Below are positions 132 to 39,100 of a stretch of DNA of 64,000 nt, in pieces. The position numbers were made by a program, and so were the translations under genes. This DNA is from Isurus oxyrinchus (taxonomy: Eukaryota). Under the pieces are notes generated by a model that had not been told where the DNA came from, did no database searches, and saw only the letters and a list, made by a program, of their open reading frames with translations. Position 1 is the first letter of the stretch. Each line of letters opens with the position of its first letter. The stretch lies in NCBI GenBank assembly GCA_026770705.1, contig JANJGN010000034.1:4588001-4652000 (forward strand), read 5' to 3'.

Positions 132-167
132 AGCTCACTGAATGCAAAGAGTCTTCGAAAGATTTAA
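132..167 (+). CDS. Microexon type A, 36 nt
   Basis: ttccag|AGCTCACTGAATGC...GATTTAA|gtaaga; (E)LTECKESSKDL. Confidence 0.85.
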   Translation, partial: SSLNAKSLRKI

Positions 168-3100
168 GTAAGAAAACATACTTCTCACGTAAAATAACTC
201 CATAGTAAAGGCAGGGCAGCAACGTCATATAGGACACTAAAGCAGGACAGGTGACAACGATTTATACGGAGCTTTTACCCTTTGGCCATTTTATAACAGA
301 TAGGTCCTCCTCATCAGTATCGTATTTGAACAGTTGCTTGTCTGAATCTAATGGTGGCATATTGATGCGACCAATCTTCTTTGTGTTGGCCAATATTCCA
401 ATTGCTGCAGGGATGGGCACAATTAGCCTGCTTTCTGGAAGTGCACTGTTCACACTGGAATTTGCCGTTGTCTCATGAAGACATTAATTTCTGATTTATA
501 GAGGAAAAGTTGAAGGACGTTCAAAAAGGTATTTCATTTATCAATCCAACCGGCTAAGGAGGCATTACGAAGAGTGGTGTGAAGAACATACTGCAAGATG
601 ATGAGAGTTGTGATGAAGTGAAGGTGGATTATTAATTACATTGAATTTTTTTTTCAATGCATAATTGAACGAACTTGAAAAGTTTTTTTTTATTTTCAAA
701 TTTCTGCTTTAAATAACCTTTACATATTGATAGCTAGGTCATGCGAACAGATCCAATACATTTTTCTGAAAGTCCAGATGTGATCTCCGTCTTCTAAACC
801 AAGGAATAATACACAAAATCATTTTTCTGGCGCGCCTGCTTCTAGTCGCCCCAAGTTTCGTGTTGTTTGTCATCAGGGGAAAAAGGAAATCATGCAACCT
901 ATGCATCCAATGAATCTCAACTCAAAATTTGTTAATCACTGAATGGATATAGCATCAACCGTTCAATATAGCACGCAAGGGAAATGTGGTTGTTTAGTGC
1001 TATTCAGACAACAGCTTAAAATTAGGTTGTGTGCATCGTTGGAGCATAATTTTACATTGAACCACCTATGGATTTGGTCCGTTGTGGAGGAAGACGCATA
1101 TATGGAATTTGTAATATCTTGATTGTATATATCTGAAATGATCTATTCTTCCTTCTTCTAGGACTGGACGGTTTCAAAAAAGTTATTGGTGACTCAGGTT
1201 AGCACACAAACAAGGCTGGGTTGGGGCTGCCTCTTGGTAATGGAACGAGATTGAGGATTGCAGTTTTGAGCGCAGGTTATTACCGATGCTGAATTAATGA
1301 CGCAGAATGCCTGAAATTATGTTTATACATTTCTTGTTATTTAAAATTCTGGAGACAATAAACTATGCAGCTCATCTGAAATATCGATGGAATTGAAGAT
1401 TCCATTCAGATTCCAATTGGCTCAAAGTGTTGAAAATAATGGAGAGATCTTGGGAATGTTAAATACGCAGTTTCACATTTGCAAACTATTATATTTCCAG
1501 CCCTCGATTGACGGTAGCAGACCTGAACAATGAAGCAGTTCTGCTACTAGGACATTGATGAAGGAACTCACGGTTTTGTTCTCGCCAAGTGCACGTTTCA
1601 ACCCTTTGTATCTGCTGTGAAGTAGAATTAACTTGTTTCAGCAGCAACAGTCCAGCATGAAGTTGTCGAATTTAGATGTGCATTCTACAGCAGAAATATG
1701 TTTATGGTAATTCAGCACGCAATTGAATGAACAGATCTCTTGGCAAAAATTTGGAGAAGAACTATCACGGCATGGGGTTGATATGCATTCAAACTTAGCC
1801 ATCCTCGGTGGAAAGTCTACATGCAGTGGTCAAACAATCAACACATTTTCTACTCGTTTGTGTGTGCAAATTCAGAGCTTTGTTTCAAACATTGAATCAG
1901 TGATATGTTTTGAATTGCCATTATTAGGCTGTAAATCGTTGCTCGATGTCCCAGTGTACAGAAAAAAAGACGAATTAGAATTGCAATTGTATTATTTCCT
2001 ATTACTGGCTCTACCAAATGTCTGCGCTACATTATTAACAAACTTGTAGAGTGAAGTTCTAATATGACTTTTAATACGAAACTACAGTTGAACTGTAGCC
2101 TTTTCCGCTACACAGAATATGGACATACAAACAACATTTAATGCATAAAGTTCGAAGAAGAAAGTGTGGGGGACGGTGGGTGGGTGGGGGGGTGGGGGGA
2201 AGAGTAGGTCGTATCCCTTTAAAACTCTAAAGCAGTTATTCACTATATGATTACAGATTAAATCTGCTTTACAATGTTTTGTGTATCTTCGAAACAAGCA
2301 TTAGAATGAGTGGCTGCCACACTTTTCAAAAGTTTTAGTGTCATCAACCATTTATATATTTGCCATTCAGTTTCCTGTAGTATATTTTATGTGCTGTTTC
2401 GTAAGGTGGGGCAACATTCGTAGTTTTTCCCATTACCCCAAATAATAGAGCAGGAAATCTTTCGCAATGTATTACAAAATACCTGTTTTGTGACAGCGAA
2501 TTATCATATCGTTGATAACAACTTCACTGAAGCTGAGTTTATAATTTGGGAAGATGAAGCAAATTCTGTTGCACATGCAGCGCCAATTATAACCACTTTG
2601 CACCATTAGTATTCAATATCACCTAAGTGAAATTGACGGTCTCAGTTTTGAAATGTTTCTTTAGCCAGGAGCGTCACTATGCCTGTCAGAATGTGTTCAA
2701 TTGTTGTCAAGATGGATGCTGCCGCGACTTTTGGTTGACATCACCACTGGAGGTTGTGCGTATGATGTTACTTTCAGCACCCCTGTTTAATCATTTGCTT
2801 ACCTTTTATGCACCTATGTATTTATTTGCTTATCGGTTTATGTATTTAATTATTTTTCTTCGATTTATTTACATATTCATTGATTCAATCATTCATTAAT
2901 CTGGTTTTCTGTTTGTATTCCTGTGTGTGTGTTTCTTTCTTTGTTCTTTTATGTATATATTTGGGTATTAGTTTATTCGTTTGTTAATTTATGGAACTAT
3001 TGATGCATTTATTTCTATATCTATTTATGTATTTAATTACTTACTCACTTAATTAATCGCTTGCTTATTTATTTATGTGTGTATGAAACTGCGCATTTAT

Positions 3101-6100
3101 TCATTTTTGTCTTTGGATTTTTCTCCCATCAGTGGAATTGGTTGACATCTTGAAGTTATGAATGTGCCCTTCCTCAACAAGAGTATTTTCGATGACATTT
3201 TAAAGTTGCAAACGCAAGTGATTTCAAGACTCATCGTGAAAACATGTTTTTGTAATATAATTCCGAAAGCCTCTCTAAAGCTCGGATGAAGCTGCAGTGC
3301 GTCAATGCCAAGACTAGTCCATCGTTAATCTGTTTTGGTTGCAGATCTGGATGCAGGTACCTAATTGAAGGCAAAGCTGATCTTTGTCCAAACTGCATAA
3401 TTGGTGTGCGATAATAAACCACATAATCACAATACGCTACTGATGTTGTAAAATGTTTGCTGTAAATTCTAATTGCTTTGATGCACTTTAACAGATGAAA
3501 AACTGAAATTAAAAGCAAAAGGTAACTGACTGCGAAATCATTACTTCATAGCAGCGGAGCAAGTTCTTTTTTGCGAGTTGATGGTGTGGCCATGAATTTT
3601 GGAGATATAAGCAGGCTGGAGGTCGACAACTACATGATGATTTTGCTGGCCCTGGCATAGGTGGTGTTGGGCCTTTATCCGAATGATTGTTGCTGACTAA
3701 AAGCTGAACTGAACTGATCAGAACTTAAAAGTTAGGGGAACATTCGCGTGCACTCCTGAACATGTGTTTTGTCCCTCCGGGTGCACTCCGAACCAATTGA
3801 TGCTGGCTCGCTCCCATGACAATTTTTGTTCTGAATTGCAAACGTCATATGCAAAGGCCTCCACGGTTAATGGGAGTGGGCCTACAGCGTGTTATTATTT
3901 TGAAATTATAAACTGAATCGACATGTTTTATTATCCACTGTACGTCCATATTGCATTGAATTACATGAGTCTGGATTAATCGATCAATTCGGTCTATGCC
4001 TGTAGTTTGTTTTTGCCTACTTGCCTGCCTCCCCTTTGCAATATAATAATGTTAAGCATTAATAGCAGCAAAGCTAAGAATGTCTGAAGGTTATTACAAG
4101 AATGACTACCCTACTCTCCCCCACCCAACTGTTCAGGATTTAATTCCCACCATGCAATCATTATCCAATTCTCTTGAACTCAAACAAACAGCATATCTTT
4201 TGAGATTCTGTGCACCTGCAATTTTGACCAATTGTGCATCAACGATGCCGTCATTTAATAATTATTGGTGTTACGAATTTCTATTTAGCATCTGATTGGC
4301 ATAATTCCTCTCATAAACATTCAACTATGTGTCTTATCGTTTAGAATACATTGCGCACCATACATTGAGGAGACAGGTTTTGGACACTTATCTCGTTGCC
4401 AATGAAACATATTGGTCATATTTCTTGCACACAAGCAGTTGTTTAAAATTACCCAATGCTTTGCAAAATAAAATGAACATTTCATTGAGGACACTGCCAA
4501 TTGCTCGCATGTGAATCTTTTCAAAAATGAATACGTTCACATGTTTTTCCTCATTGCAGAGCTCACTGCATGCAAAGAAACTGTGAAAGCTTTAGGTGAG
4601 CAAACAAATATGCATTCTGGAAGACAACATTGCGACCATTTCATCTGGAAAGTAATTGCAGGATAGGTGATATCATCTTTATCATCCAAACTACCCAAAG
4701 CCTTTTAATTTCTACGGGTTGAAATACCAACTGTATTGCACAATAGGGGGTCCATAAAATAGCATCCGTTTACCACTTTTGTCCGAGTTGTTCTGTCGGG
4801 CCACATGACTGCATGCAGCATGCAGTGACGTTTTACTGACATTAAATGTAACAGCGACTATTACATTTTGCACAAAGATGATCAACAATCACAACTTTTT
4901 TCTACTGTAATATAATTTGAGTTGCACTTGTCTGTTGATTTCCAATGTCAATAATTTCTTCTTTACAGAAGCAAAACTGGACGCAAAGCAAAACGGTATT
5001 AATTGTTTCTATTCAACTGGTACATGGGCAATAATACCAATGTTGGCAAGAAAATAGAATGCAAGTCTGTCATTGCAACAGTCGTGTTAATTGACTCAAC
5101 GCGCAAATTTCATACTATTGTGGCAGAATAATCCTTGCGAGGGAATCATAAATCTGTCCGCAGCAGTAGTTTTCTGCTGATAGGAAATTTACTGGTGACA
5201 GTTTCGATTATATCAATGTTGTTTTCTGATTACCCAACGCACTTATAAGTTATTGAGCAGATGTTGCGAATGAGTGAGAGAAGTTGCCTTTCTTTGGAAA
5301 TAAGTAATTAACTCCTAAGTGTGCCCATCCATCTTGTGAAAGGCCAAGTATGACATTCTTATACAGAGGCAACAAAAATTGTGCATTGTGCATTATTTAT
5401 GGTTATATTAAACCAAATCCTTCCATGTGTTGTGGGTGGAAAAGTGAAATCGTATGCAATCTTTTTTTTACTTACTAATCAAAAGAATTTCAACTCAATG
5501 TATATTCATGATTAAACGTTTGCACCAAAAACATAATAGCATACGGAAAATGAGTTTAAATACTGCTTTAGGATAATTCGGCACGAAATTGCGGCTCTCC
5601 GCACCCTTGCAAAACAGGTTTTTCACATCGCATCACGAATATATTTGGCCAGATGTGCAAGAGACACAATCGTGCATTTATACCCCATATGGGCGCTGTC
5701 TATTGTTCTTCTTTCCAGAACTGGAAGACGTCAACAAAGTCGCCGTTGGCTCAGGTTGGCACACGCCCAAAACATGATTGTTAACGCTTCTTGGGCAACA
5801 TAACTAAAATTAGAAGTGCAGCTTTGACTGCAGGTTTTATTTCCATTATAACGCAATGAAACACAATGCCTGCCATTGTGTATAATGGACGCAAAGAGAT
5901 AAAAAAACAAAAAACTGCGGATGCTGGAAATGCAAAACAAAAACAGAATTACCTGGAAATACTCAGCAGATCTGGGAACATTGGCGGGGAAGAAAATAGT
6001 TGACATTTCTAGTCCTCATGACACTTCAACAGAACTGAGCGAATAAAAGGTAGCATGATCAGAACAGATGAGATGGAGGCGAAGAATGGGATGAGTCTTT

Positions 6101-9100
6101 ACATGATGCTGGGTGTGAGAAGCTGCAGTCGAGGTAGCTTTGGGAGTCGATAGGCTTGTAATGGATATTGGTGGACCGTCTATCCCCAAAGATTAAGACA
6201 GAGAGGTCAAGGAAGGGAAGGGAGTGTCAGAGATGCAACACTGAAAATGATAGAGGTGTGGAGATTGGAGGCAAAATTAATATTTTTTTTCAAAGTCCTG
6301 ACGAGAGCATGAAGAAGCACAGAAGTAATCATCGATGTACCAGAGAAAGAGATGTGGAAGGGGGCCGGAGTTGGACTGGTACAAGGAATGTTGCACATAC
6401 ACCATAAAGATACAGGCATAGCTGGGGCCCATGTGCATAAAAGGTGTGGCTATGGGTACCCGCATGAGCACAAGCTATGCCTGTCTCTTTGTGGGGTATG
6501 TGGAACATTTCTTGTTCCAGTACTACTCCGGCCCCCTTCAAATATTTCTCTACAAACCTACCGACTCCCACAGCTACCTCGACTACAGCTCCTCACACCC
6601 CGCTTCCTGTAAGGACTCTAACCCATTCTCTCAGTTCCTTCACCTCCGTCGCATCTGTTCTGATGACGCTACCTTCAATAACAATTCCGCTGACATGTCC
6701 TCCTTCTTCCTTAACCGAGGTTTTCCACCCATGGTCGTTGACAGGGCCCTCAACCGTGTCCAGCCCATCTCCTGTGCATCCACCCTCACGCCTTCTCCTC
6801 CCTCCCAGAAACATGATAGGGTGCCCCTTGTCCTCACTTATCACCCCACCAGCCTCTGCAGTCAAGGAATCATCCTCTGCCATTTCCACCAAGTGCAGCA
6901 TGATGCCATCATGAAACACATCTTCCTCCATCACCCCATGTGTTGAAATTGATGATATTATCACAACCAATGTGCTAATTATGAATGGATGGTAGGGCAC
7001 TCAAGGTACAGCTCTAGTGGCGGTGGGTTGGAAAGACGAGCAAGGCATAAAATATTCATAAATAATGGAAATAGGTGGGAAAAGAAAAATCCATATAAAT
7101 TATGGGAGAAAACAAAAGAAGGGGGAAGAAACAGAAATGGGGTGGGGATGGAAGAGGGTGTTCGAGATCTAAAGTTGTTGAATTCAATGTTCAGTGTGGA
7201 AGGCCGTAAAGTGCCTAGTCTGAAGATGAGTTACTGATCCTCCAGTTTATGTTGGGTTTCAGTGGAACAATGCAACAGGCCAAGGGCAGACATGTGGGCA
7301 AGAGCGCAGGGTAGAGTGCTAAAATGACAAGTGACAGGGAGGTTTGGGTCATTCTTGCTGACAGACCGCAGGTGTTCTGCAAAGCGGTCGCCCAGTTTAC
7401 GTTTGGTCCCGCCAATGTAAAATAGACCTCATTGGGAGCAACGAATGTAGTAGACTTAGTTGGTGGAAATGAAATGAACATACTGCTTCACTTGAAAGGA
7501 ATGTTTGGGCCCTTGGACGGTGAGGAGTGAGGAACTGAAGGGGCAGGCGATGCATCTATTGCAAAACAAAAGCATCATAAACTGTTGTTGTGTCGCTTGG
7601 TTGCACTTATGGTGACAATCATCCTTCAAATACTAGGCATTCCGGTCTGGGAGTGTAGTTTTGTGTCTGCTGCCACGGTCAACATTTTTGATTTACCATA
7701 TACAGCAAGCTTAAATTGTTTGTTTTTAAACTCTGCAGTCCTAGCAACATTTGTGGAGCGAGTTACATAATTAAACTTTAGAGGCCAATATCTGTCTTCA
7801 GTGAAAATCAAGAGAGTTATTAGTGTGATGTGTAAACGTTGTTAAAACAACGGGGGAGGGACAGGTGGAACACAATAAAAGGTCAGGTAAAGGTTAGACG
7901 GCAAGAGTTAGTAAAAGACAATGAAGCCATGGAACTGAAGGTAGAGCGAATTTGAACGAGAGCAATAAATGAACAATGATCCATCCAATCTGGATGTATA
8001 GAGCAGAATGAATTCAACACTCTCAAATTAATTACATGCAACAAAGATACAATCTGAAACATGGGAAAACAGAAAATCAAAATTAGGCAGCTTACATGCT
8101 CTGACATTATTGAACTCGAAGTTGATCCCAGAACTCTGTAAAGTATTGAACAGGAGCTATTTCTTTAGCTTGCGTTCGCCATCTCTGGAAAATTGTATTT
8201 GCCAGAGGGGACATGGAAGCAGCACAATTGGATGATGAATTAGAGTGACAAACGACAGGAAGGGTGATGTTATTGCTAAGACATGAGCGAACAAAACTGG
8301 GACAGAACTGGTAGTGTGCCATGGTGTAAGACAAACATGGTCAAAAGAGCTGAACTCCAGGTGTAAACTGAGGTTGGCTGCCCTTGTATCAAGAAAATAT
8401 TTGAACGAGAATGGCTTCGTTGCATCTTGCACAACTGGAGCCAATGGAAATCAGGAAGAAAAAAAAATTCTGCTGGTTGGATTCATTCTTAGCAGAAAGG
8501 ATGTTGGTGGTGTTTATACGAGGTCAATCATCTCGTTCGAAGGGCATCACTGAATAAATTCCAGGAAATAGAATCCAAGTGAAATTGATCATCAACTGCT
8601 TTATCAATTACCTTCCTTCCATCATGAGGTCAGAATCAGGAATATTGGCAGAAGATTGCACAATATTCAGCACCATTTGTGACTGCTCAGATGCGGAAAC
8701 AGCCCATTTCCAAATGCAGCCAGATGTGGATAGTATACAGACTTGAGGTGCCAAGTGGCATGTGACGTTCTTGCAACTCAATTGCCAGGCCATGAACTTC
8801 TCCAACAAGAGAGAATGTAACAATCACTACCTGACATTGAATGGAATTAGCGTTGCCAAATCCCCCTATGACAGAATCATGGGTTTGACTATTGTGCAGA
8901 ATATAAACTAGAACAGCTATACAAATACTGTGGCTTCAATGGCTGGTTAAAGGCTACGAATCCTGCAGTGAGTAACTCAGCACATTACTACCCATACACT
9001 ATCCAGCACCTACTTTTCACAAGTAAGGAGTGTGGTCGAAAAAGATGCAATTGCCTGAATGAGTGCATCTCTAGCAAGATTCGGGAATCTTAACACCATC

Positions 9101-12100
9101 CGGAAAAAAAAAACCCTTGGGTGGCATCGTTCCCAATAAAACATTCACTCAATGCACCACTGATGCATCGCATGTACCATCTCGAAGATGTACAGCTGCA
9201 ACTCACCAACACTCCCTAGACCGCAACGTCCAAATCCATGACTTCTAAAGTCCAGAAGTTCAAGAGCACAAGGCACATGGGAGCAACAGAATGGGGAATT
9301 CGCCCTCCAGGCTCCTCACCATCCTGACTTGGAAATGTATCGTCTCCCCTTCACTGCTGCTAGGCCGAGATCCCGGAACTTCCTCCTTAATAGGACTCTG
9401 AGTGTATATAGGTGACATGGACAGCAACAGTTCAAGAAGGTAGCTCAGCACCACGTTCTCAATTGTAATTAGGAATGGCCTTTAAATGTTGGCTAAGCCT
9501 AAGATTCCCACATACCATGAGTGAATGAATAAATGGAGGCCCATCCCGTAAAGCCAGATTAGGGTACAAAACACTTCCATCGACATTAATGAAGCACAGA
9601 TTATGGTCTTGGGACATTTTAATAGCTGATAATTTCACTTAGAACGTGGAAGACCTGTACGTAGTCCCCTTTATCCGTTATGTTGATGTGACTATTACAA
9701 AACCCTGAAATAAAAATGGCATTCTCATCTTTGAAGGGTTGCAATAACCACGAAAATCCACAGCGCATGTGGAAGAGTGTTCCTTTGTCCCCCTGAACCG
9801 ACTCTCAAAATGTTTTTTTTTAATGGTGAAATTCTTCCATTATTTTTGTAACTTTGTATGTTAGTGTCCTTTCTTCTGCTTAAACTAACAGTGGAAATGG
9901 AATATGCCTATCTGACCTTCCGAACAATTGAATTGCATCACTCTTTAATGCATTCTGCTCAAATTATTTCAGGCCCCGTTTTGCACACATTATTCATAAT
10001 GTAATTCTTAAACCCTCGTTATAAGCGTGTTGAATCCAAAACACGCTAATTCAAATCGCACAATATCCTTAATCAACGCCATGCCCGGAAGTGAAAATAG
10101 AACAGCATGTATAATCAAATTTGCAATTCATCTAATTCATCGAACCTCAAAATTCCCTCTACCGTCTACTATGTTTACTGCATAGTCTAAATGATTCCAA
10201 TGCATTTTAACAGAGGAGAAAATAAAAACAAAAGAGAATGGTAACTGGTTCTTAAATTAAGATTTCAGATCAGCATTAGAGTTCATATTGTTCATTTATT
10301 TTTTTGTTGTTTTTGCTGCTTTACTGGGGAAAAATCTATTGGGGATACCAGTGGGAGGGAATTGGAGAAGTGAATCAGAAATCTGATAGTCTTGCTTTGT
10401 ATGTTTGCTGGGCTAACATCTGATCGAGCTTCCCGGCTTTATGGCTCAACTTCTCGAATGTTTGCATTATAAAGATAATCATATTCCATTGCATTAGGGA
10501 ATGTGTGATTCCTTCCTACGTAAGCATTTTGAAACAGTTGATGCTGAATGTCTGCCACAGCAATCTGTTTTACGAATTCGAGAGGTGCAGGTGGTGTTAA
10601 TAAAAGAAGGCTGTTTGTCCCGATTTTCTATTGGGCTTTACTACCTCAATTATTCTAAATTATAACTGATCATCCGTTCAACTGGCACTGGATTGCACGA
10701 ATCAGCATCAGAAATAAGAAAATTCGATCTAACTAATCGATGTACACATTTTCTGTGGTTGCTCGAATTTCTTTGAAAACATTAAGTGACATATTCTGAA
10801 CAGCAATTTTAGGAATCCCTTAAAGGAAATTGGCAGCGTGTCAAGACCCTGAAAACTCTCCGGCTGTTACAGATTTATTTATGCAAAAATGACCACTCTC
10901 TGCTCCTCCAACTCGGCCCAACTGTGCATCACTGAAATGCACAGGTTAAGAGCTCCTGGCGTACCTTCAGAGCTCGAGCACATGTTTACTGAAATACCTT
11001 CTCTAAGCAACTGCGCTTGGCATTTTTCATCATTATTATTTTGTGTCACACCTTAACATTTATGCCTTTTGCGAATAATGTCTTTACAAGGCCCCAAATT
11101 ATGTGTTATAAGCACTTGACAACTTTGCTGCTTAGATGTGATTCTGTAAATTAGTTATCACTTTGGAATAAAATTGAATTACGTTTGTGAAAAACGCTAT
11201 TTGAATACAAGCTAGTCTTGTTTTTTTATGAATGTGCTCATAGGTTAGTTTCTCTGATTCCAGAGCTCTCCACGTGCAAAGAAGCTTTGAAGGATTGTGG
11301 TGAGAAATTATACGTATACAGAGGCATTGCCAAGGTCTGAATGATGGATTGCAATGAAGTTCCAGTGGGATAACTAATCATAATCTAATCACCCTGCGGT
11401 GTGAATTTCCTGAAACAAATTGAATCAACACTTTCACTTAATTATTAATTTACCATATTAACATCACTCGCTGGACCATTGTTCAAAACTTGGATGAATG
11501 TCTATTGGGAAGAGGCAGCAATTGGGAATCATACATTTTGTACTTGTGCATCGAGATTTGCAACATTATGTCGGTGAAAGCCTCTTTAAAGCTCAAAAAT
11601 TAAGTTTTGAATTTTACCAATCTTTCAATATTGGAAAGAAAGTCGTGAATTTCAGCTCGCAATTCTGGCATGTTCCCAAGTAGCCTAAGAGATTTGAAGT
11701 AAAAAAAAAAAGTAGGGCTGTGTTTGCCTGTAGGCTCCGTCCTGCAAGCTGCTCTAGTATGCAACACATTACTATCCACCTCACTGTATCAGAAATTAAT
11801 TATAGCCAAAGAATGAGCAATTTTCCAGCGGCACGGAAACCTAAGTTCAAATTTTCACTTAGATCGTGGATGAAATGAAATCAGTTCCACCAATCAAAAA
11901 TGTTGATTTCACGTGCTGAGATTACCCTTACAAAAAAAATGCACTTTGGAAATGTTGCATTGAATCTGATTCTAAGCGGTGCATGTGGGTTAGAGTTTCA
12001 TTTTCACGTGACTCTTGTGAACATGTTTTGCTCGAACGATTCTCGACACTTCGCCTATCATTTTATCTCTGAATGTGTTTTTCTTCGATTCCCACTTCCA

Positions 12101-15100
12101 TTAACATGCTTTATACCTATCAAACCGAGTGATTGTTTCATTCCACTTGAACTCTTAAAATGCATTCCCAATTAGTATGGTACACTCAAGTTAAGTCAAG
12201 CCCTTTCATCATTTCATGATGCAATTAATAAAATTTCACTTTATTTGTGGTGAATTTGTGTTGCGCCCTTAGAAGCTGCAATCAGTGTCATGCCTAACAC
12301 TGAAACCAGGATTCCAAATGTACACCAACCTGAGATTTATCTCAGTATAGAAACTGGTCCAAACCAAATTTTAACTATACCCCTTGTGAGCTTCATATGC
12401 TGTATGTGTTATGTAATTTAACTGTTTCTTTTTTACCCATGCAATTTAACAGAAGAAAAACTGAAATCAAAAGAAAACGGTAATTGATTGTGACAATGAT
12501 ATTTGATAACGGAATGATGACAAGTTGTTCTTCTCTTTCTGTTGCACCAAGCAGATGGCGTGGAAATGATTGTTTCTGATATGCGTGGAGAAGAGTTGAT
12601 GCAGTGATTGACGATCTGGCCAAACCTAATTAAGATGGTGGAATATGACATTTGCATGGGCATTATTGGCTTTAGGCTGCATCTCATTGGCGTTGGCTTG
12701 CCTGTTAGAATGGTGTTCCAGTATAGTATTGACTACTGAGGGCACACTTTGCCGTAGTTGTTGCATTATAGCTGTCACGCCAATTTGTGTTCCGATTTGG
12801 AAGGGAATTATCCAACGACCTCCAATCTTTAAGAGCAGGGAACATACCCTGATCTTCATTACAATATTAATACCTGAATTGCCCTAACCTATGACAAGAT
12901 ACCTGCTTACTTTGTATTCAATTGCAAAAATACACATCACGGAAAGGGAGCGTGTGACCTATCCAGCCTACGTCAAGTTTTGATTAGCCCCACTAGTACA
13001 TATCAAAGTATCATAACACATTATGATCAAAAATACCATTTATCCTTGAAAGAAATAGCTAACCCGAATGGTTCGAAAATTGTTCATGATTTGAAAATTC
13101 ATGCATCCTCTTGGTTTCCATTTGTTTTGGAATCTAGAAAAGGGCACGACGTTTTATTCACACTGGCGCTCATCCAATTCTGCCCAATTTCACCTTTTTT
13201 TCGCTTTTTGCCAAATTCAGCTGCTTGATTCAGGGTTGCAGAAGTAACTTTCTGGAACAACTTAGCTTCATTTCTTTTCTTTAATAACATCCATTTCTTA
13301 GGTTTTGTCACAGCTTTACATCTCCGTCTTTCATGAAGCTTTTGGCCACAAATAACTTAATCTGTTGTGTCCTTCCTTGTCATGTTTTTCATGCAAACTT
13401 GCAGCATATGATTGACTGCACTTTTCGAAATCGTATGTTTGACATTTTTTACTCACAGAGCTCCACATAAACGAGTGCTGATCCAGTTTCAGATGAACGT
13501 TCTGATAGGATAATTTTCCTGATTCCAGAGGCGACCAAATGCAAAGAGGATTTCAAAGCTTTAGGTGAGAAAAGCCACTTTCCTTCTGGAAACTCTCACA
13601 TGATAACCTGACCTGTACATCACCTGAGACAGAATCGCAGATCTAGTGATATCATGGTGACATCCCATTATAAACACAACCATCAAATAGCCTCATTGAG
13701 ATCAATTGGATCTCAAAGGAGTGTAGGAAATGAGGCAAATAACATAGCATCCAATTATCAATTTTGCCAAGGAGCTAGCTCTGCGCCCTATGGTTGAATG
13801 CAGTGATATTTTATTGAGGTTAGCAATCACTAAATTTGGGCTATTATCCACGCGCTACAGAGATTGTCAGCATTTACATCAGCATTACATAATGACATTT
13901 CTGGCGATAAACTTCGCTGCTGAATCTCAAGGGCTTCTTTTGTTTAACAGAAAAAGAGCTTAAAGAAAATAAAGTATTACCACGTTTCGAAAATTCACCT
14001 TTACGAAACTCATTAGGAGAGTTTTGGCAAGAAGATTGAAGAAACGGTTTCAATTCAAACATGACAGTCTTTCAAATTGCTGGTGTGTCTTTACTTTACT
14101 GCATTAAACAAAAAAAAAATAAAACATGCCACAAGATAAACGTAAACTGAAAAGTTGTGGCATTGATCTGATGATTATTATTTTGATGGTGATTAGATTG
14201 ATGATATAACTAACGATTCTGAATTGAAGTGATATATGAAGAAGAAACGAATGCCACTTTAAATACATACTTTAAATTAGAGAATATAAATGCCTTTAAT
14301 TGTTCATATCCATCTTATGTCTGTATATCATTCTTCTGCTAAAAGGCAAAGCTGACATGAGGATTCGCAGGCACACAAAGTGGGCTCTAATGCATCTAGC
14401 CAAATATCTTTTCATTTGCCATGAGTGATTAGGGAACAAAGGAAAATACTTGATTACTTACACATAATCTGAGTTCATAATCAATCATTGTTCAACGTTC
14501 AATTTGAATAGCTAATTGCTAAGACCGCAATGGCATATTAAACAGTTGTCTTTTGACTTCAAAACAGACCCCAATGCAGCATTACCAGTCCAATATGCCT
14601 GATGTGTAGACAGAAGCATATTGGTTAATTTGTAATCTCCTCACTGTCGATACCAAATGCGTTACTTCCCATTTTAATCCATATCTAGACAATGTTATAA
14701 AAACCGCAGGTACCGTTGAGTAGCACCACCGAACGATGTTGGGCTGGGATTTTTTTCTTTTTCATGCAACTACACTCAGGAAGTCAAGACTAACACCAGC
14801 TTGTAAGTTAATCATAACTTAGTGTGAACAAAATTCCTGATGCCAATTATAGGTAGTGTTTTTCTAGAAACTCTGGAAGACGAATTCGTGTTGTTTTTCT
14901 AAGGGCAAGTTCACTTTTAACTCGGCCTCGAATGAATTATCGCCATGAGCGGAATGAAAAGGACATGAGTGGGCATGAGAATTTTGGAGGATCATTCGGA
15001 ACCATGTGAAAGTAAAATATTGTCATTATCAAACTGAGAATTGGAAAAGCACTCTAACAACTCATCCGTGAAGGAGCTCCACATGTTCGTCACCAACATT

Positions 15101-27100: not shown

Positions 27101-30100
27101 GCACAGGAAATAGTTGAGGTGTTTTGTTTCAGCAAATGCAGAATACAAAGCGTGCAAAGAATCTTGAAATGATATCAGAAAGAGAAGGACTACAGTCTAT
27201 TCAAACCTTTGAAGAATTTACTTTCTAAATTCATTTGAACTGTAACAGCGTTTCAATTTTCATAAGCAACAAAACAAAGGTGAAATTCCATTCAGTTGGA
27301 ATAGTTGGCTGCAGATATGGAGATGGCGAAGATATATTTTCTGGACATTGAGTGGCATTGAGTGGAATTGTTTTAATTGTATGGCTTTTCATTCGTTGTG
27401 TGTGAAGATCGCTGGCTAGGCCAAAAATGGTGGCTCATCCCAAAAATGCCAAGAGAGTAGAAATGCTGCAATGTAGGCAAGAAGCGCATCCTGTTACTCC
27501 TGTTTAGAATACAACACATATCGAGTCAAACTAATGGAAAACAACTTAGGAACACTTGGAGGACAGTCACTTGGACCCATTCCAAATTCTACTTATTTAT
27601 TAAATGAGCAGACTCCGTTTCAACAAACTACATTGCTTAATTCAATATTTAGTGCAGGTCTTGACAAGTAGCATTCTGTCCGACCCCCAATTCTGATGTC
27701 GGCGTCTTTTCCAATATCCCAAATCGTGGTTTTGCTGGCTTCACTCCTTGAACCTTGATGTAAAATTTTATGATGGCTTATTTTGTTTGATGGTTTCGTT
27801 TTGCACTTCCAAAATTCATGCATGCCTTGGCCCTACTACCAACTATGTGCAGTTGCTTTCTTAGTGACCTTCCCTCCTGAAGTTTGGAAGTTCCCTCATC
27901 GTTGCGCAAGGATCAGCACCATTCCCGACTCCTCAGTTACAGAAGCGAAACATTTCCAATTGCAAGAAAATCTGACAAAACCCAAGCTTATGCTGACAAG
28001 TGGATTATGCATTTGCAGGAAGCAATGCAAGGCAATGATGAATTCCAAGATGAGATAACTGAAATATAGCCACTTGGAATTAAAATGCATTCCCGTCACG
28101 GGATCCCAACTATCAACATCCTGGTGACTGACTTTCACAGAAACTAAACTGGACTAGCTATTTGTATACTGTGGCTACACGAGCAGTGCAGAGGCTAGTA
28201 ACCCACTTCCTTACCCCCAAGAGCCTGCTTAACATCTAAAGGATGCAAACAGGAAATGTGAAACTTTCCACTTGCCTTGGTCAGTGTAACTCAACAGCAC
28301 CGAAAAAAGCTTGAAGCCTTCTAGGGCAAAGCAGCTCGCTTGATTAGAAGCGTATCCAAAAAAACATCCAATCCCTTCACATTCGAACCAAAGTGACAGC
28401 CTTAGGTGCTATCTACAAGATGCAACACAGAGACTCACCAATTCCTATGCATAACCTACCAAATCCACGATCACTAATGCCTGGAAGGCAATGAGAACAC
28501 TATGCAAGTCCCCCGCCCCCCACCCCCAAACCACACACTAAGCTGACTTAGAAATATAGCGCTATTCGTTCACATTCGTTGGGTCATAATTCTGGAACTC
28601 CCCTCCTAATAGCGCTTGTTGGTATACTGGGAGTTTGCCGTGCAACAAAAGGTCTTTTTTCCACCATCTTCTCAAATGCAATTTATATGAAGGCCATTCC
28701 AGCGACGCCCACGCCCCATCTTAGAATAGGAAAAACCAAAAAGTCGAATATTTTAATTGGCTTTATAATTCAGCGCACTTCAACTCTTTGTACTCAAGAG
28801 AATTGAAGAAAATTATTGAAATCATTATCCGTAATCCAAATCTCAACTCTCGCTATAATTCTGGTGAAACAGTTCTGCATCACTTCAACTCCTACTTTAT
28901 GGAGGTCCAAGAGCGGAATCCTGCAATCTGAACATGATCAAACCTGAGATAAAAGCAACATATTTCGGATGCTGGAAATCCGAAGCAAATGCAAAAACAA
29001 AAACATATATTCAAGCCTGAGATTTGTTTAACTCCATAACTGGCTTGCGCAAAAGCTGAGAAAATCTTCATACGTTTTCCCAGTTGTACAATGTTTCCGG
29101 TCTATTCCAAAAGATTTTCATGCACTTCAACAGAAGGACAAATGGAATCAAAAGATGCTGGTAAGTGACTGTTAAGTTATTATTTCGCAAAGTCAAATAA
29201 AGTTAGAGTGGCATTTATTTTCAAGAGGATTTTGCAGAAACATTGTTCAGAAGATTGGTGAAAGGTAGTTGAATAAGTCATTGGCAATTTTTTCAGTATT
29301 GCTCAGATATTTTGTGGTTACATCTGAGCAACGTTTACTGTTTAGACACTTAACGGCACTGACGTAGGGTTTTAATTTCCGGTAATAGCCCAGTTCAACA
29401 GTGGATGCGAAATGCCTTCCCACATGCGTAGTTGATAGTAACTGAGAGCAACGATAAATTTGAACATGAATTGGGAGAATAATTTTGAAGGGCCTCGACG
29501 AATTTGAGCAGGTAACGTCTTCCCACCCTGTTCTTGATGTTAATGCCATTATATGCGTTCCGCATAACCCACGCTTTGGCTATTTTAAATTGGAGGACAT
29601 GAACGTGCATTGGATCAAAATCGTTTTTGTTTCAGTTTTCTTTTGTCTTCTGGACAATTTGTTGAGGCACATAATTAGCAGCAATTTCAGGAATCACTGA
29701 AATCTGAAACAAAATCGGCATTTACAAAATGTTTCAGGTATAAATCCCCATTCATGCTCTCAGTCTCGTCGTTTTTGTAACTTGCGAAAATGCGATAATT
29801 CTTCGAGATATTTGCAGTTCCCCAAGTTTTGTATCTCCGATTGCCATCATCTAAAAGCTGCAAGGCGTTACCTTGAGCTGTTGGTCCTACAAACTGCTCT
29901 GCATCGCTATTCATCCTTCATATGATAAGGCACTCTTCAACAGCTCCGCCTATGAAAATATTCGCCATATGTACCTTTGTTTGTTATGTCCATGCATTTC
30001 ATTAATACTCCCGCCCAATTTTCAATGTACATTTCAAAACCCGTTGCATGACCGAATTTCATTAACACCTCAATATAAATGCAAAATAATCTTTCTGGAG

Positions 30101-33100
30101 AAGAATGAGCTCCTGTTGTTTTGGGTCTTTTTGCCTCGTTCCAGAGCTGAAATCATGCAAAGAATCTTTGAAAGATTTAGGTGAGAAAACAAAATTGTGA
30201 AACTCTCGCCTGTTGATGGGGCAATGAATTGATCTGGGGGACAAATGTTTTTGCCGGACCGTTTTCTCCAAGACGCATTCCCTGCACCATTTACTTCTGC
30301 AGTTTAGACGTCAAGTGTGGTGTTTAACAACAGGGAGTATAAAATGCCAGCCGTTCTGTACTTTCATCAGAGAGATGTTTGTGGGGCCATTTGACGGAAT
30401 GTCGCAAAGTATTATTGAAATTACTAATCAACACTTATATTCTAGCTAGTACAGGCAGCAATTGCAATTATTATCTATAATGGCATTGCTGCTGATAAAC
30501 TGAGCTGTTGACACTCAAATGCAATAATTTCAATTTTCAGAAGAAAAGCTGAAATCAACGCAAACGGGTATTAAACGTTCTGACACAACTACGATTTTGC
30601 AAAACAAAATGTTTTAATTAGGATGGAACAAGAGACCTTCAGCCAAATTCATATATTTAATTGCATTATGTTTACACAATATTGCAAGGGTAACGTAAAT
30701 CTGAGTGTCGTGGAATGTTACTGGTGCTGTGTATGATAATAGCAATAGATGTGACGATGTTAATGCTGATTATTCATTTTTAAAAACATCTGTCTTTTTG
30801 CCAGGTTCGATTGCATGATACTGACCAGATTTCTATAATTAGAGAGTCAATTACCTTTAGGTGTTCTTAACTATTTAATACCCGAGGGATTCACATAGTT
30901 CTTGAAAAAGTTGGTGCGACATTGGTCCTCGGAGGCAACAACAGTGGATTGCATTGTCTGTTATGGTTGCATACCGTTGACCCAATTGGCCTTTCCCTTG
31001 CCATAAGTGCAAAACAAGAATCATGCAAAATGTTAGAGCACTTCCCAGGTGAGGGAACTTGAGGTCAATAAATATTTATGATATATATGAAGTGATCTGT
31101 TCTTCTTCCTTTACAGACCTGGATGGTGTCAGAAAAGTCGCTCATGACTCAGGTTAGCACACGCGTGGTGGGTTCGGAAGGCAGCTTCATCAATTGGATT
31201 AAGTGAGAAGAATAGTTTTGCACACAGATTTAAACTAATGTTAACCCGCTGAAACAGAATGTCGAGTTTCGTTTTCCTCAAGATTCTGCCACAATAATAC
31301 GATGCCATTATCCAGAAGAATAAATAGAAGGTTAGCATTAAATTCATATTTGTATTTATTGAAAGTGAGGACTGAATTGAAAGGGGCAATGGCGGGTTTG
31401 TAAATATTCAGATTGCCGTTTTTCAACTGTTAATTTGCAATCCAAATGTTAACATTAGTGAACTGAGAAATGTCAGACGTCAGAAACTGTTAGTTTTTCA
31501 AGGTTAAACTGGTTTTCGTCCCGATCGGTGGCACAATTCAGCCTTAGATATGTAATAGAACATAGAATTAATGTGCTGGAGCAGCTCCGATCTTGCAGAA
31601 GTAAGTCACGATCAGAGGTACTGTTCACAAGTTAAATTGTGCATTAGAAATATAAATACCAAATCTAAATATAGGAGTCCAAACTTTCAGATGATACAAC
31701 TAATCTACTGGCATGATTTTTTGAAAGCATGTGAACTGTTTCTGGCTTCGGGAAGGGACATTTTTTTTTTTTACTAAACCTACCTCAGCATAAACGTGGT
31801 AGGCAATTATATAACGAAGTGCAATTTTCAGCTCCCAGTGAGCAAATTTAGATGTTTTTTCTCTAAAATTGAATAAGTTCCAGTTATAACTGGTAGGCTG
31901 AAAAACATTTTTGGAAAGCACTTGTCCAGAAGGACTAAATGTTTTGGAAGTTTGCATTAGATTCTAATACCAGCTGTCCCCGATAAAAGAAAGGCGAAAC
32001 GTTTCTGACAAATGTGGAAACACTGAAACTGAGAGTGTGATTTTCTCTTCGATGGAAACAGATTTTGTTTTACATTATTTCCATTAATGCAGAACTCAAT
32101 TCATAAAACAATCTTAAAAAGATATGATGAACCGAGTGATCCGAGTGATTCATAACTCAAAGCAAAGTTATTCACTAAATAAGTGTAGAATGAAGTTCCG
32201 TTTAGACATACGTGCGCATCCAAGAACAGGGAATGGCATGTTTGCGTGTGTGGTGTGTGTGCGGATAAATAATCGGCTGTCATTTAAAAGTTTAGCATTC
32301 ACTGCTTTGAAGTGGATTTTTGCATACCCATCGGGGACAAAGATTCGAAAGTCGTTTATCCTTAATTGCCCAAGATAACAGTACTGGGAATGTCCTGAAT
32401 TGAAGCGCAAGAAGGCCCACATTGTGACGTCCCATTAGAATACAGCAAATTCCTCCCAAATCGCTGGAGCAGAAATGAGGAACTTGCGAAAACAAGGGAA
32501 ATTGTCCTCTTCAAATTTAGTGAAAATCGTTGCAGGCTTTTAATCTATGCACCTTGGTATGGTAATCGATGAATAACGACCTCAATTTTGGAAAGTTGCA
32601 GTGAGCAGGAGCATCCACATTCCATGTCGTTCTTTGTTCCATTTCCTCCATGCAACTCGGGCTTGGACTTTTTAATGACATCTCACTTCTAATCTTTACG
32701 TCTAATTTCACGATGTTGCCTTTTATTACTCTCTTCAGTATTGACCAATAGTCGGAAAGGTTAACCAATATCTCTTAAGTTGAATACTTAACTCCACTTA
32801 GGCGCTTGAATTGGGTTACCATTAAGGTATAAAACATTGAATTCAAGTGTCTTCTTCGGAAGAAGAAAGCTTCATAATGCAAATCGCAGATCCTGGCTAT
32901 AATCATCATCAATCCGCAGGAACTACTTCCAAGCACATTAATTATTGCGATGCCCAGAGGTGAAACTAGGAATCTAGATTAATCAGGCCTGTGCTTTATC
33001 TAACTTTCGTGCTTATAAAGGCGAAGATTCTGAATAACCTCGTGAAGTTAGTCAATGATTATTGTAATCTAATTTTGTCCAATTTATTTTAACAGATCAA

Positions 33101-36100
33101 AAAATAAAATCAGAGGAGAATGGTAATTCATTTTGAAATCATATTTAAAATGTGCTTAGGCATTCGTAATTTTCCTCTTCCTGCCCTCGGCCCACAAGAG
33201 GCAGATGCAGAAGGCGATGTTGGGAATATACCTCGACGGGAATTAGATAACCGGTTCAGGATTGAACAGCCTTCATTTCGATGCTTCAGCGTTGCCAGCT
33301 GTACTCTGTACAGCTGAACTACACTAACTTCTCCGTGACAGTTACATTATGATGGCCGATATTGTAGCCCGTGAGTTATTCTATGCGTGGTTCGCTCCTT
33401 CTGTCACATTTTGCCGTAGTTGTTGCTGAATTTCTGCAACTTCAAATTGTGATACAAACAGGGAGGGGTGGTCAATGACCGGGGCATAAATGAAAATGGC
33501 ATGACTGAATTTATTTTTCGGCATTATCACCTGATAACCCTTAACCATCTATCTGGTCAGTGTAAATTAAATTGCAAGCGTTTTCTTCAAGTAGGCGGAG
33601 GATTCGATCCATTGTGTCAATGCCAAAGATTTGTTAGGCCTCCCTTGCTCTCTTGACAATACAGTGTGTTATATTATGCAAAACCTTTTTTAGTACTTTC
33701 TGAAAGAGGAGAAAAGGGGGCACACACTAAAACTAAGCTGAATTTACAACACAGTCCATCCCATCATCCTTTCCTTTAATCGGAGCTCGCTCCAACATTA
33801 TAATTGCGCAAGACATTTTCGCTCCTCCAGTTTTAGTCAAATTGTGCACCATCGATTGCCTCCACTTAAAATCTTTCGGGATGACCGTCTAGTGCTTCTG
33901 AGCTCGTCACTGGGATTTCCTCCTATGAAAACAAATCTCTTCTGCTCTACTGTCCATTCTTGTGTCAAGACATTCCTTAACACATACGCCTTTGATAGAC
34001 CTCGGCTACAAGTCCAGTTACGGGCTTTGAGCCTCATCTTCAAATTTCTTCTGCACACATTTCATTGCAAAATCAACAATTTAAAGCATTTCATATTGTT
34101 TTAGTACGTGGAAGGCGTGATATCAAAGCAAGGAAAACTCGTTCTAAATTAATCTGCTGATACTTAGCGATTTTCCCCACTGCAGAGTTCATCCAATGCA
34201 AAGAATCTTTGAAAGTTTTAGGTGAGGTTATCGATTTGTATTCTGGAAACGATTGCACAATTGCATGGCAAGGATATCATATTTGAGAGAAACGTAGGGG
34301 AAGTGAAGTTGTGTTTACATCCCGTTTTAACAAATAACCATTTTTGGCTCAATTGACTCGTCGGTCGTTAAAAATAAACCGGAGCGCAGAACAGATGGTC
34401 AATACAATACCACAAGATCAGCAAATACCCCCGGCAAGTATTGCCAGCGCCACATGTCAGGTTGTAATGAACTTTCATTCCAGTTTACAATGCACAGCAC
34501 CGTTATCCTATCATCCATATGGCACAGAATTAGTCAGCTATTACGACTGCTTTGAAAAGAAAAAACAATATTGGCAATGAATTAAGCTGTTGAATCTCAA
34601 AGTCAACAACTTCTGCATTGCAGATCAAGAGCTGAAAGCGAAGCACAAAGGTACTTTTTTTTTCAGATCGACTAAACAAATGCATTATGACAGGCATTAG
34701 CAAAAAAAAAAAAAGATTATGTAAGCCAGCAGTCTTGCCGTTCAATTTGCTTACATACTTTGTACAGCATTGCATTTAAACCGAGACACAAATCAAGCCA
34801 CCACAGGAATGTAGACAAAGCAGTTTCGACATTGGCAAATGCAGGAATAAACGGTGATGGCACTACAAATATATAGATGTGGAATGTTATTAAGGTTGAC
34901 CTTTTTTATTATATATAATTATGCATTCTCAGAACAAAAAATTCAAAGTAGAGTGAAATGCATTTCCCTTTTTTATTTAGCAGCTTCCTGTCTGAGAAAT
35001 GACCGCTGTTCTATCAGTTAAAGGCATATGTTGACAATCCTCTTCGGAGTCAACCAACATGTGATGCCGTGGGATGCCTTTTTTTTTATTACAGTCGACT
35101 CAACATTTCTTTCTTTTGCCATTAGAGGGAAACATGCAACATGTGGGAGTATTGTATTATTCATTAGGCAAATAATCACCATCTGAATTAATATGCAACA
35201 TTGGATTTGCAGAAGGGAAGCGTCACAAGACAATACGAAGCGCTTGCTCTTGTGAATTTTTTTCAGTTTAAATGAAGTTTGAGATATTGTTGCAGGTGTT
35301 GAATTAAATGGCATCCATCGTCACGTAACCAATGATTTGGGCAGAAGTGCAGGAATTTCGTGACTTGAAATCTTTTGATTGTGGGTGTCTGAAGGGGACT
35401 GTTCTTCTTTCAAGAACTGGATAAGGTCAATAAAGGCACCGAAGACTCAGGACAGCACGCAAATAATGCTGCTGCCTTGGCATCATTTATTGAGGGAATG
35501 ATATAAATTGTGTACTGCACTTCTGATCCCAGAAAATAAAGTAAGGTGGGATTAACTCAGCGAAATAGAGAGCCTGGCCGGGTTCATAAATGAGCAATTT
35601 CCATCAAACCCTTCAGAATAAATCAAACATTTATTCTTATGTTTTGTTGCAAGCGGACATTTAGTCATATTTCATGTGAATTTAAATTGAGGACATCATT
35701 TGAAAGGGCTTGCTTGGCCTTGGCATCAGGTAAGGATGGCTTTGTGAGCTTATTATGTAAGGATCGATTTCCGATATTGTTATGTGCGAGGCACATATTG
35801 ACGTTATTGCTCTGAGAGTTTGGAGTGTTCTACAAACGTCCATCGATGAAGAACTCCCAGTTCTCATCTCTTCTAATGGAAAACATACACGTTTGTGTTT
35901 TCACCTGATAGAAAATAACATGAAGGAGGTACAGCAGCATCCATATGGGAAACAAGCCTGGGCTGTGGACAGATTCCACCCAGAGAATTAGCACGTGGCG
36001 AATAGGGATACTAATTTCTGTTCATGTAAAACTAATCTCTCAAATGAAGTAACACAAGTCAGAACTATATTTCAACTAGCATCACGGGAGCCACTCTGGA

Positions 36101-39100
36101 ATTTGGAGATAATGAATTAAATTTTACTTAAGCAAACTCAGTAGAGGTAATAACTGCGCTGGGCAAGTTGGAAATTAAAGTGCTATGTCTGCTGATGTTT
36201 AATCCTAAATTTGTTAAATTAACTGAGCGCCCATTTTGATCAGAGGATAAAATAATAGCTTATTTTGCGCCTTATATTAGTCAATGAACTTGGCCATTAA
36301 TTTATAGTTGAGCAACTTAAACTAAATTTGAAATGAAAATATATTAGCAAAGCACTTACTCTGATTTATTCAATTGTATCATCACTTGTTGATATATTTC
36401 ACTCTCTTCAGCTATATTACATTCTACTTTTTCATTGCTGTGTTGCTGTGTCAGATTCTTCTGACGCACTATTTAGGATCTTCCACTGCCGGAATTTCCC
36501 GTTTTTTAAAAAATTGTATTTAATTCTCTTCTCTGCTGCTGCTTTTTCTTTGTTGCAATTATTGCGTTTGGCATTGTCAATTGTTCAATCGCTATTATGA
36601 AATTCTCTGTTATTTCCAATACAGCTGCTGCGGGTAGTTACTGCACAGTTTTTAACATCTCTTCTCCAATGTTCTTTGGTGCACTTCCACATCAATGAAT
36701 AATATGATTGAATATTACTACCTTCTGGACAGGAGCAAATCATAATTGAGGAGTCAGCGTAAAGCTATGGAAAATGTAATGCATGCCTGTTGATTATGAT
36801 AACCTGAAATTGCGTCCTTGCATTCCAGAGTTAGGTGACTGCCTGGAAGCTTTAAAAAAAATAGGTGCGTCGTCTTTTTCATACCTATGCAGTTCCCATT
36901 AAGAGAAATTCGACTCAAAGTAAAAAGAGGCATTTGAAACTCCCGGATAGAAACTTCAATGCTGATTGCTATGAAGCGCTAAATTCTTAACTGGGTTGAT
37001 TTGCAATATTCATGTTGATATGTGTGTCGGCGTGGAGGATTTGATTTAAATAATATATATTTGTTCAATCGAAGTGGCGGCCACTGACGATCGTTGCCAA
37101 TCCGTAACTGCTCGTGAGAATGTCTTATGGAGCTGCTTTCTTGAACCGCTGGAGCACATGTGATGAAGGTGCACCTTAGGGATGGATTCGAGGATTTCAA
37201 TCAAGCAACAATTTCCACGTGCAAACGTCTATCAAGCATTAACCACTATTTTCTTTCGTACACACTATTATCCTTTTCCAATGCCGTGAGTATAAGAACA
37301 GTGGGGTAAACAAGTAGTTTTCAACAGAAGCCAGAAAATGGGTGAATCCGGATAAGAAGTCCGTAATAGGCTCAGCCATATATTACGCTCCTTAATTTCA
37401 ATATAACTGAATGGAAATCTACGTGCATTCAGGCTACTTCCGATTTATTGTAAAGATGTGTTTCAGGGACCTCACCAGTTCATAGAATCATATCATAGAT
37501 ACAACCGAATTTCCCTGCACCTCCTGAATTAAAGCTAAAATCTATGTCCAATCGTACTTACACCACCAGCTAATTTGAACAGTTTTTGCTACTCTTCCTT
37601 ACGGAAACATACCATACACATTCACGTTCACATTTAATCTCCTCTCAGTCACATTTGCTTCAAGGAGAACAACCAAAATTTGTCCAAAGTAACTTTATAG
37701 ATCAAACATTCCGTGCCATTTCCGACCGTTTCCGTCGTGAAACATCTGTGCTACATCCACTCAAGCACTCTCATACCCTTCTTCAATGTTGGTAAGCGGA
37801 ACTGGAGGCAACATTATATTTGGCACCTAACTAGAACTGTCCTAAATTTCAACATAGAATTCATGCTTTTGTTTTCAATGCCTCCATTAGCAATTCCAAT
37901 TACGTTTGTGAACCACTCGTTTACCATATCCTATCACCTACAAAACTCAATCCACATGCACCCGTGTACTTCTATGTCTACACACGCTTTAGAATTGTTC
38001 TATGATACAGATGCATTTTTCTCCACCCATTGCACCCAAGTGCTTCAACTCACAGTACATTATATTGAATTTTGTCTGCTGCGTGCTTGCCCAATCCGCC
38101 CATCCATTCCATGCTATTGCGACATCCAAACCCTGTATAATGGAGTAAAGAAAAATCAGTGGTATTGGAAGTAACCCTTGGGGAATTCAATATCTAACAT
38201 CCAGCAGCCTGGGGGTATTGGGGGGATGGGGGTGGGGTGTGGTGCTGCAGGGGGTAATGCATATTTGCTCCTTTCTGCACAGGAGAAAATTTGCATCCAA
38301 CAATTCTTATATCGCTCTCCCATGATCCTAAATGCTGTTTGTCAACCTGGTTAGGATTACCTTTTGACAGTATAAGTTATTTTAATACATACGGGGAGTT
38401 TCATCTCATCGCTTTTATCAACATCTCTGCTGCTTCTTCACAACTGTGATTAAATTATTCAAACATGATCACAATATATAAGCTCGCCAAGGAGATCAAC
38501 GTTTGATATACCGAGTGGTTCGCACGTCTGGGATTAATGCCCTCTGTTATTTTGCATTTTCTCTCAGGTCTAATATAAGCAAAAAAACTAGTTTATAAAT
38601 AATATGTAAAACAACACAGCACAGTAATGGCGCCACTTGCAGTTCTGTCAGGAGGCAGCCTAGCAGCCAATTCTGGCATCTTAAATTCTAGACAATCTAA
38701 AATGTATTGTTTTATTTTTTTTCCCTAACAGAAGAAAAGCTAAAATTAAAAAGTACAGGTAGATGCAATAATGTTCATTTTGTAGAAGGAACAGCCGTTC
38801 ATTATGTGACCATTGTCCCTGTGTAACATGTGTTTGACAGGGTCATAACGTCATAGAGATATGTTTCACGGAAAGAGGCCCATCAGCCCATCCTGCCCGC
38901 GCCGGAGATCAAGTCACAGTCTACATTCATCCCATTTTCCAGCACTTGGCTCATACCCGTGAATGCTATGGAATGTCAAGTGTTCCTCTAAGATTTTAAT
39001 TCATGTGGTGGGTGTCCGCCTCTACCACCTTTTCAGGCAGTGATTTCCAGGTGTGCCCTTTCCTCTGCGTGGAAAAAATAATAATTTTCACCCCTCTAAG

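Follow-up and report, generated by a model that had tools for sequence, protein, structure and literature searches.

Duplication of a four-exon block in an exon array of the shark Isurus oxyrinchus, and later paired exon changes that probably follow the register of a predicted coiled-coil rod

Introduction

How does a gene made of very short exons grow, and what decides which of these exons can later be lost? The question is raised by a stretch of 64,000 nucleotides (nt) from Isurus oxyrinchus (assembly GCA_026770705.1, contig JANJGN010000034.1, positions 4,588,001 to 4,652,000 of the forward strand; hereafter the window), which consists of AT-rich eukaryotic DNA without a long open reading frame (ORF) and is likely to be the middle of a cartilaginous-fish gene with both ends beyond the window. 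Within it lies an array of exons of 36 and 27 nt that belong to four classes, A, B, C and D, and recur in that order. A preliminary description of the array proposed that it was built by serial duplication of a four-exon genomic unit, introns included. The introns record duplication of just such a unit. It is probable that the array grew by old duplications of four-exon blocks and that later changes, in which one 36-nt and one 27-nt exon come or go together, likely stem from selection on the register of a predicted coiled-coil rod.

Layout of the array

A blind scan of both strands of the window for AG..GT segments of 12 to 60 nt with good splice scores gave length spikes only at 27 nt (12 on the plus strand, none on the minus strand) and 36 nt (18 plus, 4 minus). 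Sorting with position matrices built from seed exons yields four classes, of which A and C measure 36 nt and B and D 27 nt; all are symmetric phase 1 exons on the plus strand. They form nine A-B-C-D units with exon lengths of 36/27/36/27 nt (Table 1), five of which (units 1, 2, 5, 7 and 8) are complete.

The nine unit starts listed in the preliminary description are each the exact first base of a 36-nt AG..GT exon, and the intron lengths that it gave are also exact, provided that introns adjoining the dead exons B4, C4, B6, C6 and C9 are taken in. The A-B introns (334, 373, 386, 387, 387, 605, 360 and 402 nt) are, together with the B-C introns (549-764 nt), the shortest, and the D-A introns span 878-1253 nt. 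The single A-B intron of 605 nt, in unit 7, does carry an insert, seen as a gap of about 320 nt in the profile match; its identity as the end of a long interspersed nuclear element (LINE) is our presumption. Flanking sequences described as class-specific are better regarded as tendencies, since among A exons the ttccag acceptor, the AGCTC start, the TTAG end and the gtgaga donor each occur in 6 of 9. The proposed limits of the array, 132 and 36828, do not stand, as the array runs past both, and a D-A profile match at the very start of the window indicates that at least one further unit probably lies upstream.

Homology of the introns

Plain blastn self-comparison of the window detects almost none of the array. 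Pairs of introns were compared by local alignment, with splice signals trimmed and repeats left unmasked, scored against dinucleotide shuffles. Scores of z>5 are reached by 60 of 99 same-class pairs versus 1 of 336 cross-class pairs; in an earlier, looser comparison the counts were 38 of 99 and 0 of 336. In leave-one-out tests with nhmmer, 32 of 32 introns are found by the profile of their own class, with E values from 2.5e-7 to 2e-89, and the best cross-class match has E=0.6. Mean pairwise identity is 49-52%, compared with 38-41% in shuffled controls aligned likewise. Matches that are collinear and class-specific, together with the blank between classes, speak against an origin of this similarity in shared repeats. 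The intron similarity between units on which the earlier proposal depended is thus present, and the four-exon genomic unit was duplicated with its introns.

A motif reported to recur in D-A introns, gttg(a/t)tgc(t/g)gaat, is found at exactly the three stated positions, 10537, 16093 and 33419, and the minus strand has no copy of it. No other 13-column window of the D-A alignment is as well conserved (rank 1 of 1033), but with P=0.041 by column permutation the motif speaks for homology and not for function. The B-C and C-D introns also hold 13-column windows of above-average conservation (P=0.004 and 0.009 in the same test), which are possible splicing elements or alignment effects.

The unit had further been read as a 42-residue repeat derived from a pair of 21 residues. 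A full unit of 126 nt does correspond to six heptads, but 4 of the 9 units have lost a 21-residue pair, so that A-type exons stand either 21 or 42 residues apart. The derivation agrees with cross-scores between A and C exons and between B and D exons, but the introns show no corresponding similarity (A-B with C-D, 0 of 48 pairs; B-C with D-A, 0 of 64), and the step from 21 to 42 residues would therefore be older than the array's introns can record.

Duplication history

Long tips (about 0.3-0.5 substitutions per site) and short internal branches give the intron trees a near-star shape, which points to a short, old burst of expansion. In concatenated intron trees units 3 and 6 are sisters (support 97/92 to 99/98), as are units 7 and 9 (97/95 to 99/99), and one concatenation groups units 4, 7 and 9 (98/98); in a third concatenation, with its boundary inside the C-D intron, all three groupings are weakly supported or unsupported. 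Serial duplication in the strict sense, with each unit copied from its neighbour, is rejected by the approximately unbiased (AU) test (p=0.0005), although the copying of units itself stands. A strict period of three (1-4-7, 2-5-8, 3-6-9) is likewise rejected (AU p=0.001). The arrangement (2,5,8), (3,6), (4,7,9) is compatible with the data (AU p=0.36), and the two sister pairs fit a block duplication of about three units. Under this scheme the burst would have included a duplication in which units 2-4 and 5-7 are the two copies and units 8-9 a third copy minus one unit. No date is claimed for these events, because a pedigree rate for the epaulette shark of 7e-10 per generation (PMC10587355) would turn 0.4 substitutions per site into an implausible 6e8 generations.

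The predicted product

Between 132 and 55758 lie 34 intact exons that, read in order from the genomic sequence, alternate strictly between 36 and 27 nt and give 357 residues with no stop and 51 unbroken heptads. Position a is hydrophobic in 82% of heptads, all 12 Cys fall at position d, Lys occupies every third d (13 of 17), and the one Pro lies in the exon A6. The Fourier spectrum peaks at 3.50 residues with a power of 376, compared with 119.5 for the best of 200 shuffles. The A-class motif is ELxxCKExLKxL. On this pattern only, the product is predicted to be a coiled coil whose core contains Cys; disulfides may form there, depending on the compartment.

Paired exon losses and a paired gain

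Units 3, 4 and 6 are without a working B and C, and unit 9 is without C and D. Each loss amounts to 63 nt, that is 21 residues or three heptads, and the eight lost exons thus make up four adjacent 36+27 pairs. In unit 3 a deletion removed B and C and left an inverted intron remnant behind; a suspected decayed B3 near 11637 was ruled out, as that region is part of the inverted piece. In unit 4, B is short by 4 nt with AG and GT still in place, and C has lost both splice sites. Unit 6 has a CT donor in B and, in C, an AT acceptor and a deficit of 1 nt; its A exon is doubtful, with an AAG acceptor, compensated indels, the Pro and no Cys. In unit 9 the C donor is GA and D is gone, the C-D intron profile match ending near 36150. 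Several broken exons have decayed to the level of introns (C4 56% and B4 63% identical to consensus), so these lesions are old, while the neighbouring exons stayed intact.

The reading frame cannot explain this pairing, since each exon is a multiple of three and single skips would remain in frame. In simulated random loss the 36/27 alternation was kept in 486 of 400000 trials with eight losses and in 1118 of 400000 with six, figures that assume independent losses and are weakened by the fact that one deletion can take adjacent exons, as in units 3 and 9. Both exons of the pair can still be recognised in units 4 and 6, each with lesions of its own. The AU test rejects one clade for all the loss-bearing units (p=0.033), which implies at least two loss events, and the tree prefers three.

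There is also a recent gain of the same size. Beyond the array lies a tandem duplication of 7.45 kb (Table 1), each copy of which holds a 27-nt exon (at 38732 and 46175) and a 36-nt exon (at 44644 and 52089) identical between the copies, so that exactly one 36+27 pair, or 21 residues, was added. The duplication may be a haplotype assembly artefact. Its start is presumably the 3' tail of a retroposon on the minus strand.

The mechanism that would account for these observations is one in which intact exons are spliced in order and broken ones skipped, and in which selection acted on the seven-residue register and not on the reading frame; the rod would then be a spacer that can lengthen or shorten in steps of 21 residues. 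It is rather unlikely that this history of the array is right while the pairing comes from splicing mechanics or deletions instead, with B and C recognised together across their short introns so that one lesion silences both. Such an account would draw on the shortness of the A-B and B-C introns, on the fact that three of the four lost pairs are B+C and maybe of one origin, and on the loss of sequence by deletion in units 3 and 9, but it sits poorly with the loss of another pair (C+D) in unit 9 and the recent gain of yet another, and with the lack of any clear single-exon loss in the five complete or four reduced units, A6 being doubtful.

A fossil exon within the unit

The ancestral unit was not limited to four exons, as had been assumed, for it also carried a fifth, probably already dead exon of 36 nt, here named X. 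This A-type exon, 36-37 nt long, lies at the same aligned place in the C-D introns of units 1, 5, 7 and 8; each of the four copies is interrupted by an in-frame stop and lacks a GT donor, and an extra base in the 3' half is common to three of them. The best-preserved copy, in unit 7, scores 23.2 with the A-exon matrix, compared with -0.9 for the best minus-strand score. With a profile made from the four copies alone, E values run from 6e-5 to 0.07 for the 6 of 9 A exons that it matches and stand at 0.14 for the two G exons. Since the copies belong to separate branches of the tree, X had probably died before the expansion and been duplicated with the units. A candidate 27-nt partner near 1962, with a matrix score of 11.7 on the consensus, had no profile support and was discarded. 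So was the notion that exon E1, the first past the array, is a living copy of X, because an initial alignment to that effect was not reproduced in consensus or profile comparisons.

The existence of X invites the thought of an alternatively spliced kit, in which X was once mutually exclusive with C, many exon combinations were made, and 'dead' and 'live' are not fixed states. X and C are both of 36 nt, both lie after B and before D, and no 27-nt exon separates them; all exons are symmetric phase 1. Such a kit is nevertheless very improbable, given that stops are present and GT is missing in 4 of 4 X copies and that UGC is not clearly enriched before acceptors. Microexons regulated by SRRM3/4 are described as having UGC between the branch point and the acceptor AG (bioRxiv 10.1101/2024.09.17.613571). 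In the window UGC precedes the acceptors of 8 of 17 27-nt exons (mostly class D, related by descent) and 5 of 16 36-nt exons, against a background of 376 of 1655 sites (23%), and regulation of the SRRM4 type was set aside as not clearly indicated by these counts.

TGC stands about 11-13 nt before AG in 6 of 8 D exons (acceptors 3495, 10214, 12453, 20058, 23677 and 29134). It forms the best-conserved window of the intron that precedes D (P=0.001), but it adjoins the splice site and is common by descent.

Constraint and points of doubt

Exons are 66-68% identical between units, compared with 49-52% for introns, and 28 of 36 exon slots are intact when 3-5 would be expected under neutral decay at the intron rate. 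The pattern of constraint fits a spacer rod in which register matters more than surface. That the gene, or part of the array, is now a pseudogene with its broken exons in early decay is also very improbable, for although eight exons are broken or missing, A6 is doubtful and the ratio of non-synonymous to synonymous substitution rates (dN/dS) is 0.63, the count of intact slots far exceeds neutral expectation and the lesions are paired, several of them old, beside intact neighbours.

Besides the assumed independence of losses, several observations weigh against block growth followed by selection on register. The exon chain and its splicing are predictions from genomic DNA. The AU test does not reject a clade of units 3, 4 and 6 (p=0.20); their B+C losses may then go back to one event, and the number of independent losses may be no more than two. 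A6 may be dead, and if D6 is still used unit 6 would be short of 33 residues and the register broken. B4 keeps both AG and GT, and its inclusion would shift the frame. Alternation is not evident between 55732 and 61418, where two or three 27-nt exons follow in succession. No 27-nt partner of X was detected by profile search, so X is either what remains of a lost pair or an exon once used in place of C. The dN/dS of 0.63, pooled over non-independent pairs (1.0 for C exons), indicates weak constraint, and amino-acid identity at positions b and e is at least that at a (0.48).

Searches for related proteins with alignments of A exons found none. Two of the three covered proteins of 71-2000 residues, and in these a control against the window's own predicted product gave E=0.11 and 2.8e-7, the latter with a similar alignment; in the remaining one the control reached E=0.034, above the cut-off of 0.001, so that this search is uninformative. 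An Atlas search with one 49-residue frame gave no usable match. RNA contigs from five runs labelled as the same species were compared with 13400-33300 (runs X1, X2, X4 and X5 at 90%; X1, X2, X3 and X5 at 96%); the pieces listed lie on repeats or are chance matches of 18-22 nt, no splice joint is among them, and they are evidence neither way. Many contigs of all four runs of the 90% comparison pile up on high-copy repeats at 20700-20955, 28140-28200 and 28945-28985.

Comparison with known systems

Duplication of a multi-exon block is a known kind of mechanism, and the new part is the record of register-preserving editing. The triplicate region of nebulin is an intragenic block of 10 kb and eight exons, introns included, in three head-to-tail copies (PMC11722492). 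As in nebulin, the shark array repeats an exon-and-intron block head to tail in one orientation and adds whole protein repeats in frame. The nebulin copies share 99% identity and encode actin-binding super repeats, whereas the array has at least nine copies at about 50% intron identity, encodes heptads in 27- and 36-nt exons and bears paired exon deaths within its copies; only the 7.45-kb duplication compares with nebulin in age.

Chicken BG genes, which belong to the butyrophilin family, build a long coiled coil from many tiny exons with split codons and vary in exon number, and unequal crossing-over and deletion have been proposed for the BG region (PMC5938342, PMC4046983). The array shares the heptads and the split junction codons of the many tiny exons. 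BG exons, however, are reported as 21 nt, and the array has spikes only at 27 and 36 nt, the blind scan yielding just three 21-nt candidates on the plus strand and two on the minus, so that exon size sets it apart from BG. With exons of 21 nt, one heptad each, BG can gain or lose exons singly and stay in register; in the array the corresponding unit is the 36+27 pair of three heptads. The Ig-V (immunoglobulin variable-type) and transmembrane exons of BG have no counterpart in the window, the gene start lying beyond it. Butyrophilins occur in cartilaginous fishes and carry a variable number of heptads, few in all, ahead of B30.2 (PMC12841164, PMC4046983). The immunoglobulin, transmembrane and B30.2 domains by which they are defined are likewise absent from the window, both gene ends lying outside it. 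A literature search that took in few subscription papers found no paper on such a shark gene.

Other features of the window

None of 12 ORFs in the window matched Pfam, and Rfam gave no matches. The C-D intron of unit 2, enlarged by insertions to 4459 nt, holds nested insertions at about 5900-9500, with a GC-richer stretch near 6420-6950 that we take to resemble a fragment of a Penelope-type reverse transcriptase, Pfam giving no match. In the long introns after the array, 53000-55100 and 58950-59400 show strong C-rich or G-rich skew without recognised ORFs.

Table 1. Position of units, exons and other features in the window
Feature	Position	Strand	Details
End of a D-A-class intron	1..131	+	D-A profile match at 3-124, E=0.0032
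Unit 1, complete	132..3521	+	A 132-167, B 502-528, C 1162-1197, D 3495-3521
Exon X, unit 1 copy	2116..2151	+	stop, no donor; most decayed
Unit 2, complete	4560..10240	+	A 4560-4595, B 4969-4995, C 5719-5754, D 10214-10240
Unit 3, reduced	11264..12479	+	A 11264-11299, D 12453-12479 only; B and C deleted
Inverted C-to-X intron remnant in unit 3	11394..11662	-	11662-11474, E=6.8e-9; 11435-11394 weaker, E=0.31
Unit 4, reduced	13529..15814	+	A 13529-13564, D 15788-15814 intact; B 13951-13973, C 14683-14718 broken
Unit 5, complete	16858..20084	+	A 16858-16893, B 17281-17307, C 18050-18085, D 20058-20084
Exon X, unit 5 copy	19070..19106	+	stop, no GT donor
Unit 6, reduced	21338..23703	+	A 21338-21373 doubtful; B 21761-21787, C 22414-22448 broken; D 23677-23703 intact
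Unit 7, complete	24582..29160	+	A 24582-24617, B 25223-25249, C 25961-25996, D 29134-29160
Exon X, unit 7 copy	27142..27178	+	best preserved; A-type, stop, no donor; nhmmer E=0.015
Unit 8, complete	30145..33122	+	A 30145-30180, B 30541-30567, C 31117-31152, D 33096-33122
Exon X, unit 8 copy	32093..32129	+	stop, no GT donor
Unit 9, reduced	34186..36150	+	A 34186-34221, B 34624-34650 intact; C 35415-35450 broken; no D
Exon E1, 36 nt, Cys-bearing	36829..36864	+	first exon past the array; no D-A-class intron before it
Tandem duplication, 7.45 kb	37475..52371	+	7393/7455 identical (99.2%); 7-nt microhomology at junctions
Further exons	55732..62195	+	55732-55758 (27 nt), 61392-61418 (27 nt), 62160-62195 (36 nt)
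Candidate 27-nt exon, uncertain	59884-59910	+	two Cys; would break alternation and heptad register

Conclusions

A fuller picture can be put forward tentatively, at somewhat less than an even chance of being right as a whole: an undescribed giant shark gene whose unit of length is two exons and three heptads, in which register alone would govern the loss and gain of exons and the frame would be indifferent, with a rod, probably tipped by B30.2, that is still changing length, and with introns that record the block duplications, the fossil exon and the paired deaths. The intron record of such growth is usually near-identical between copies or erased, and in the array it is still readable at about 50% identity. 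As the exons are each neutral to the frame and only pairs are neutral to the heptad, selection on frame and selection on protein geometry can be told apart at this locus, and the two could be counted in orthologues from other sharks. The class-specific intron and splice profiles are usable for annotating a type of gene that database searches of the stretch left unmatched.

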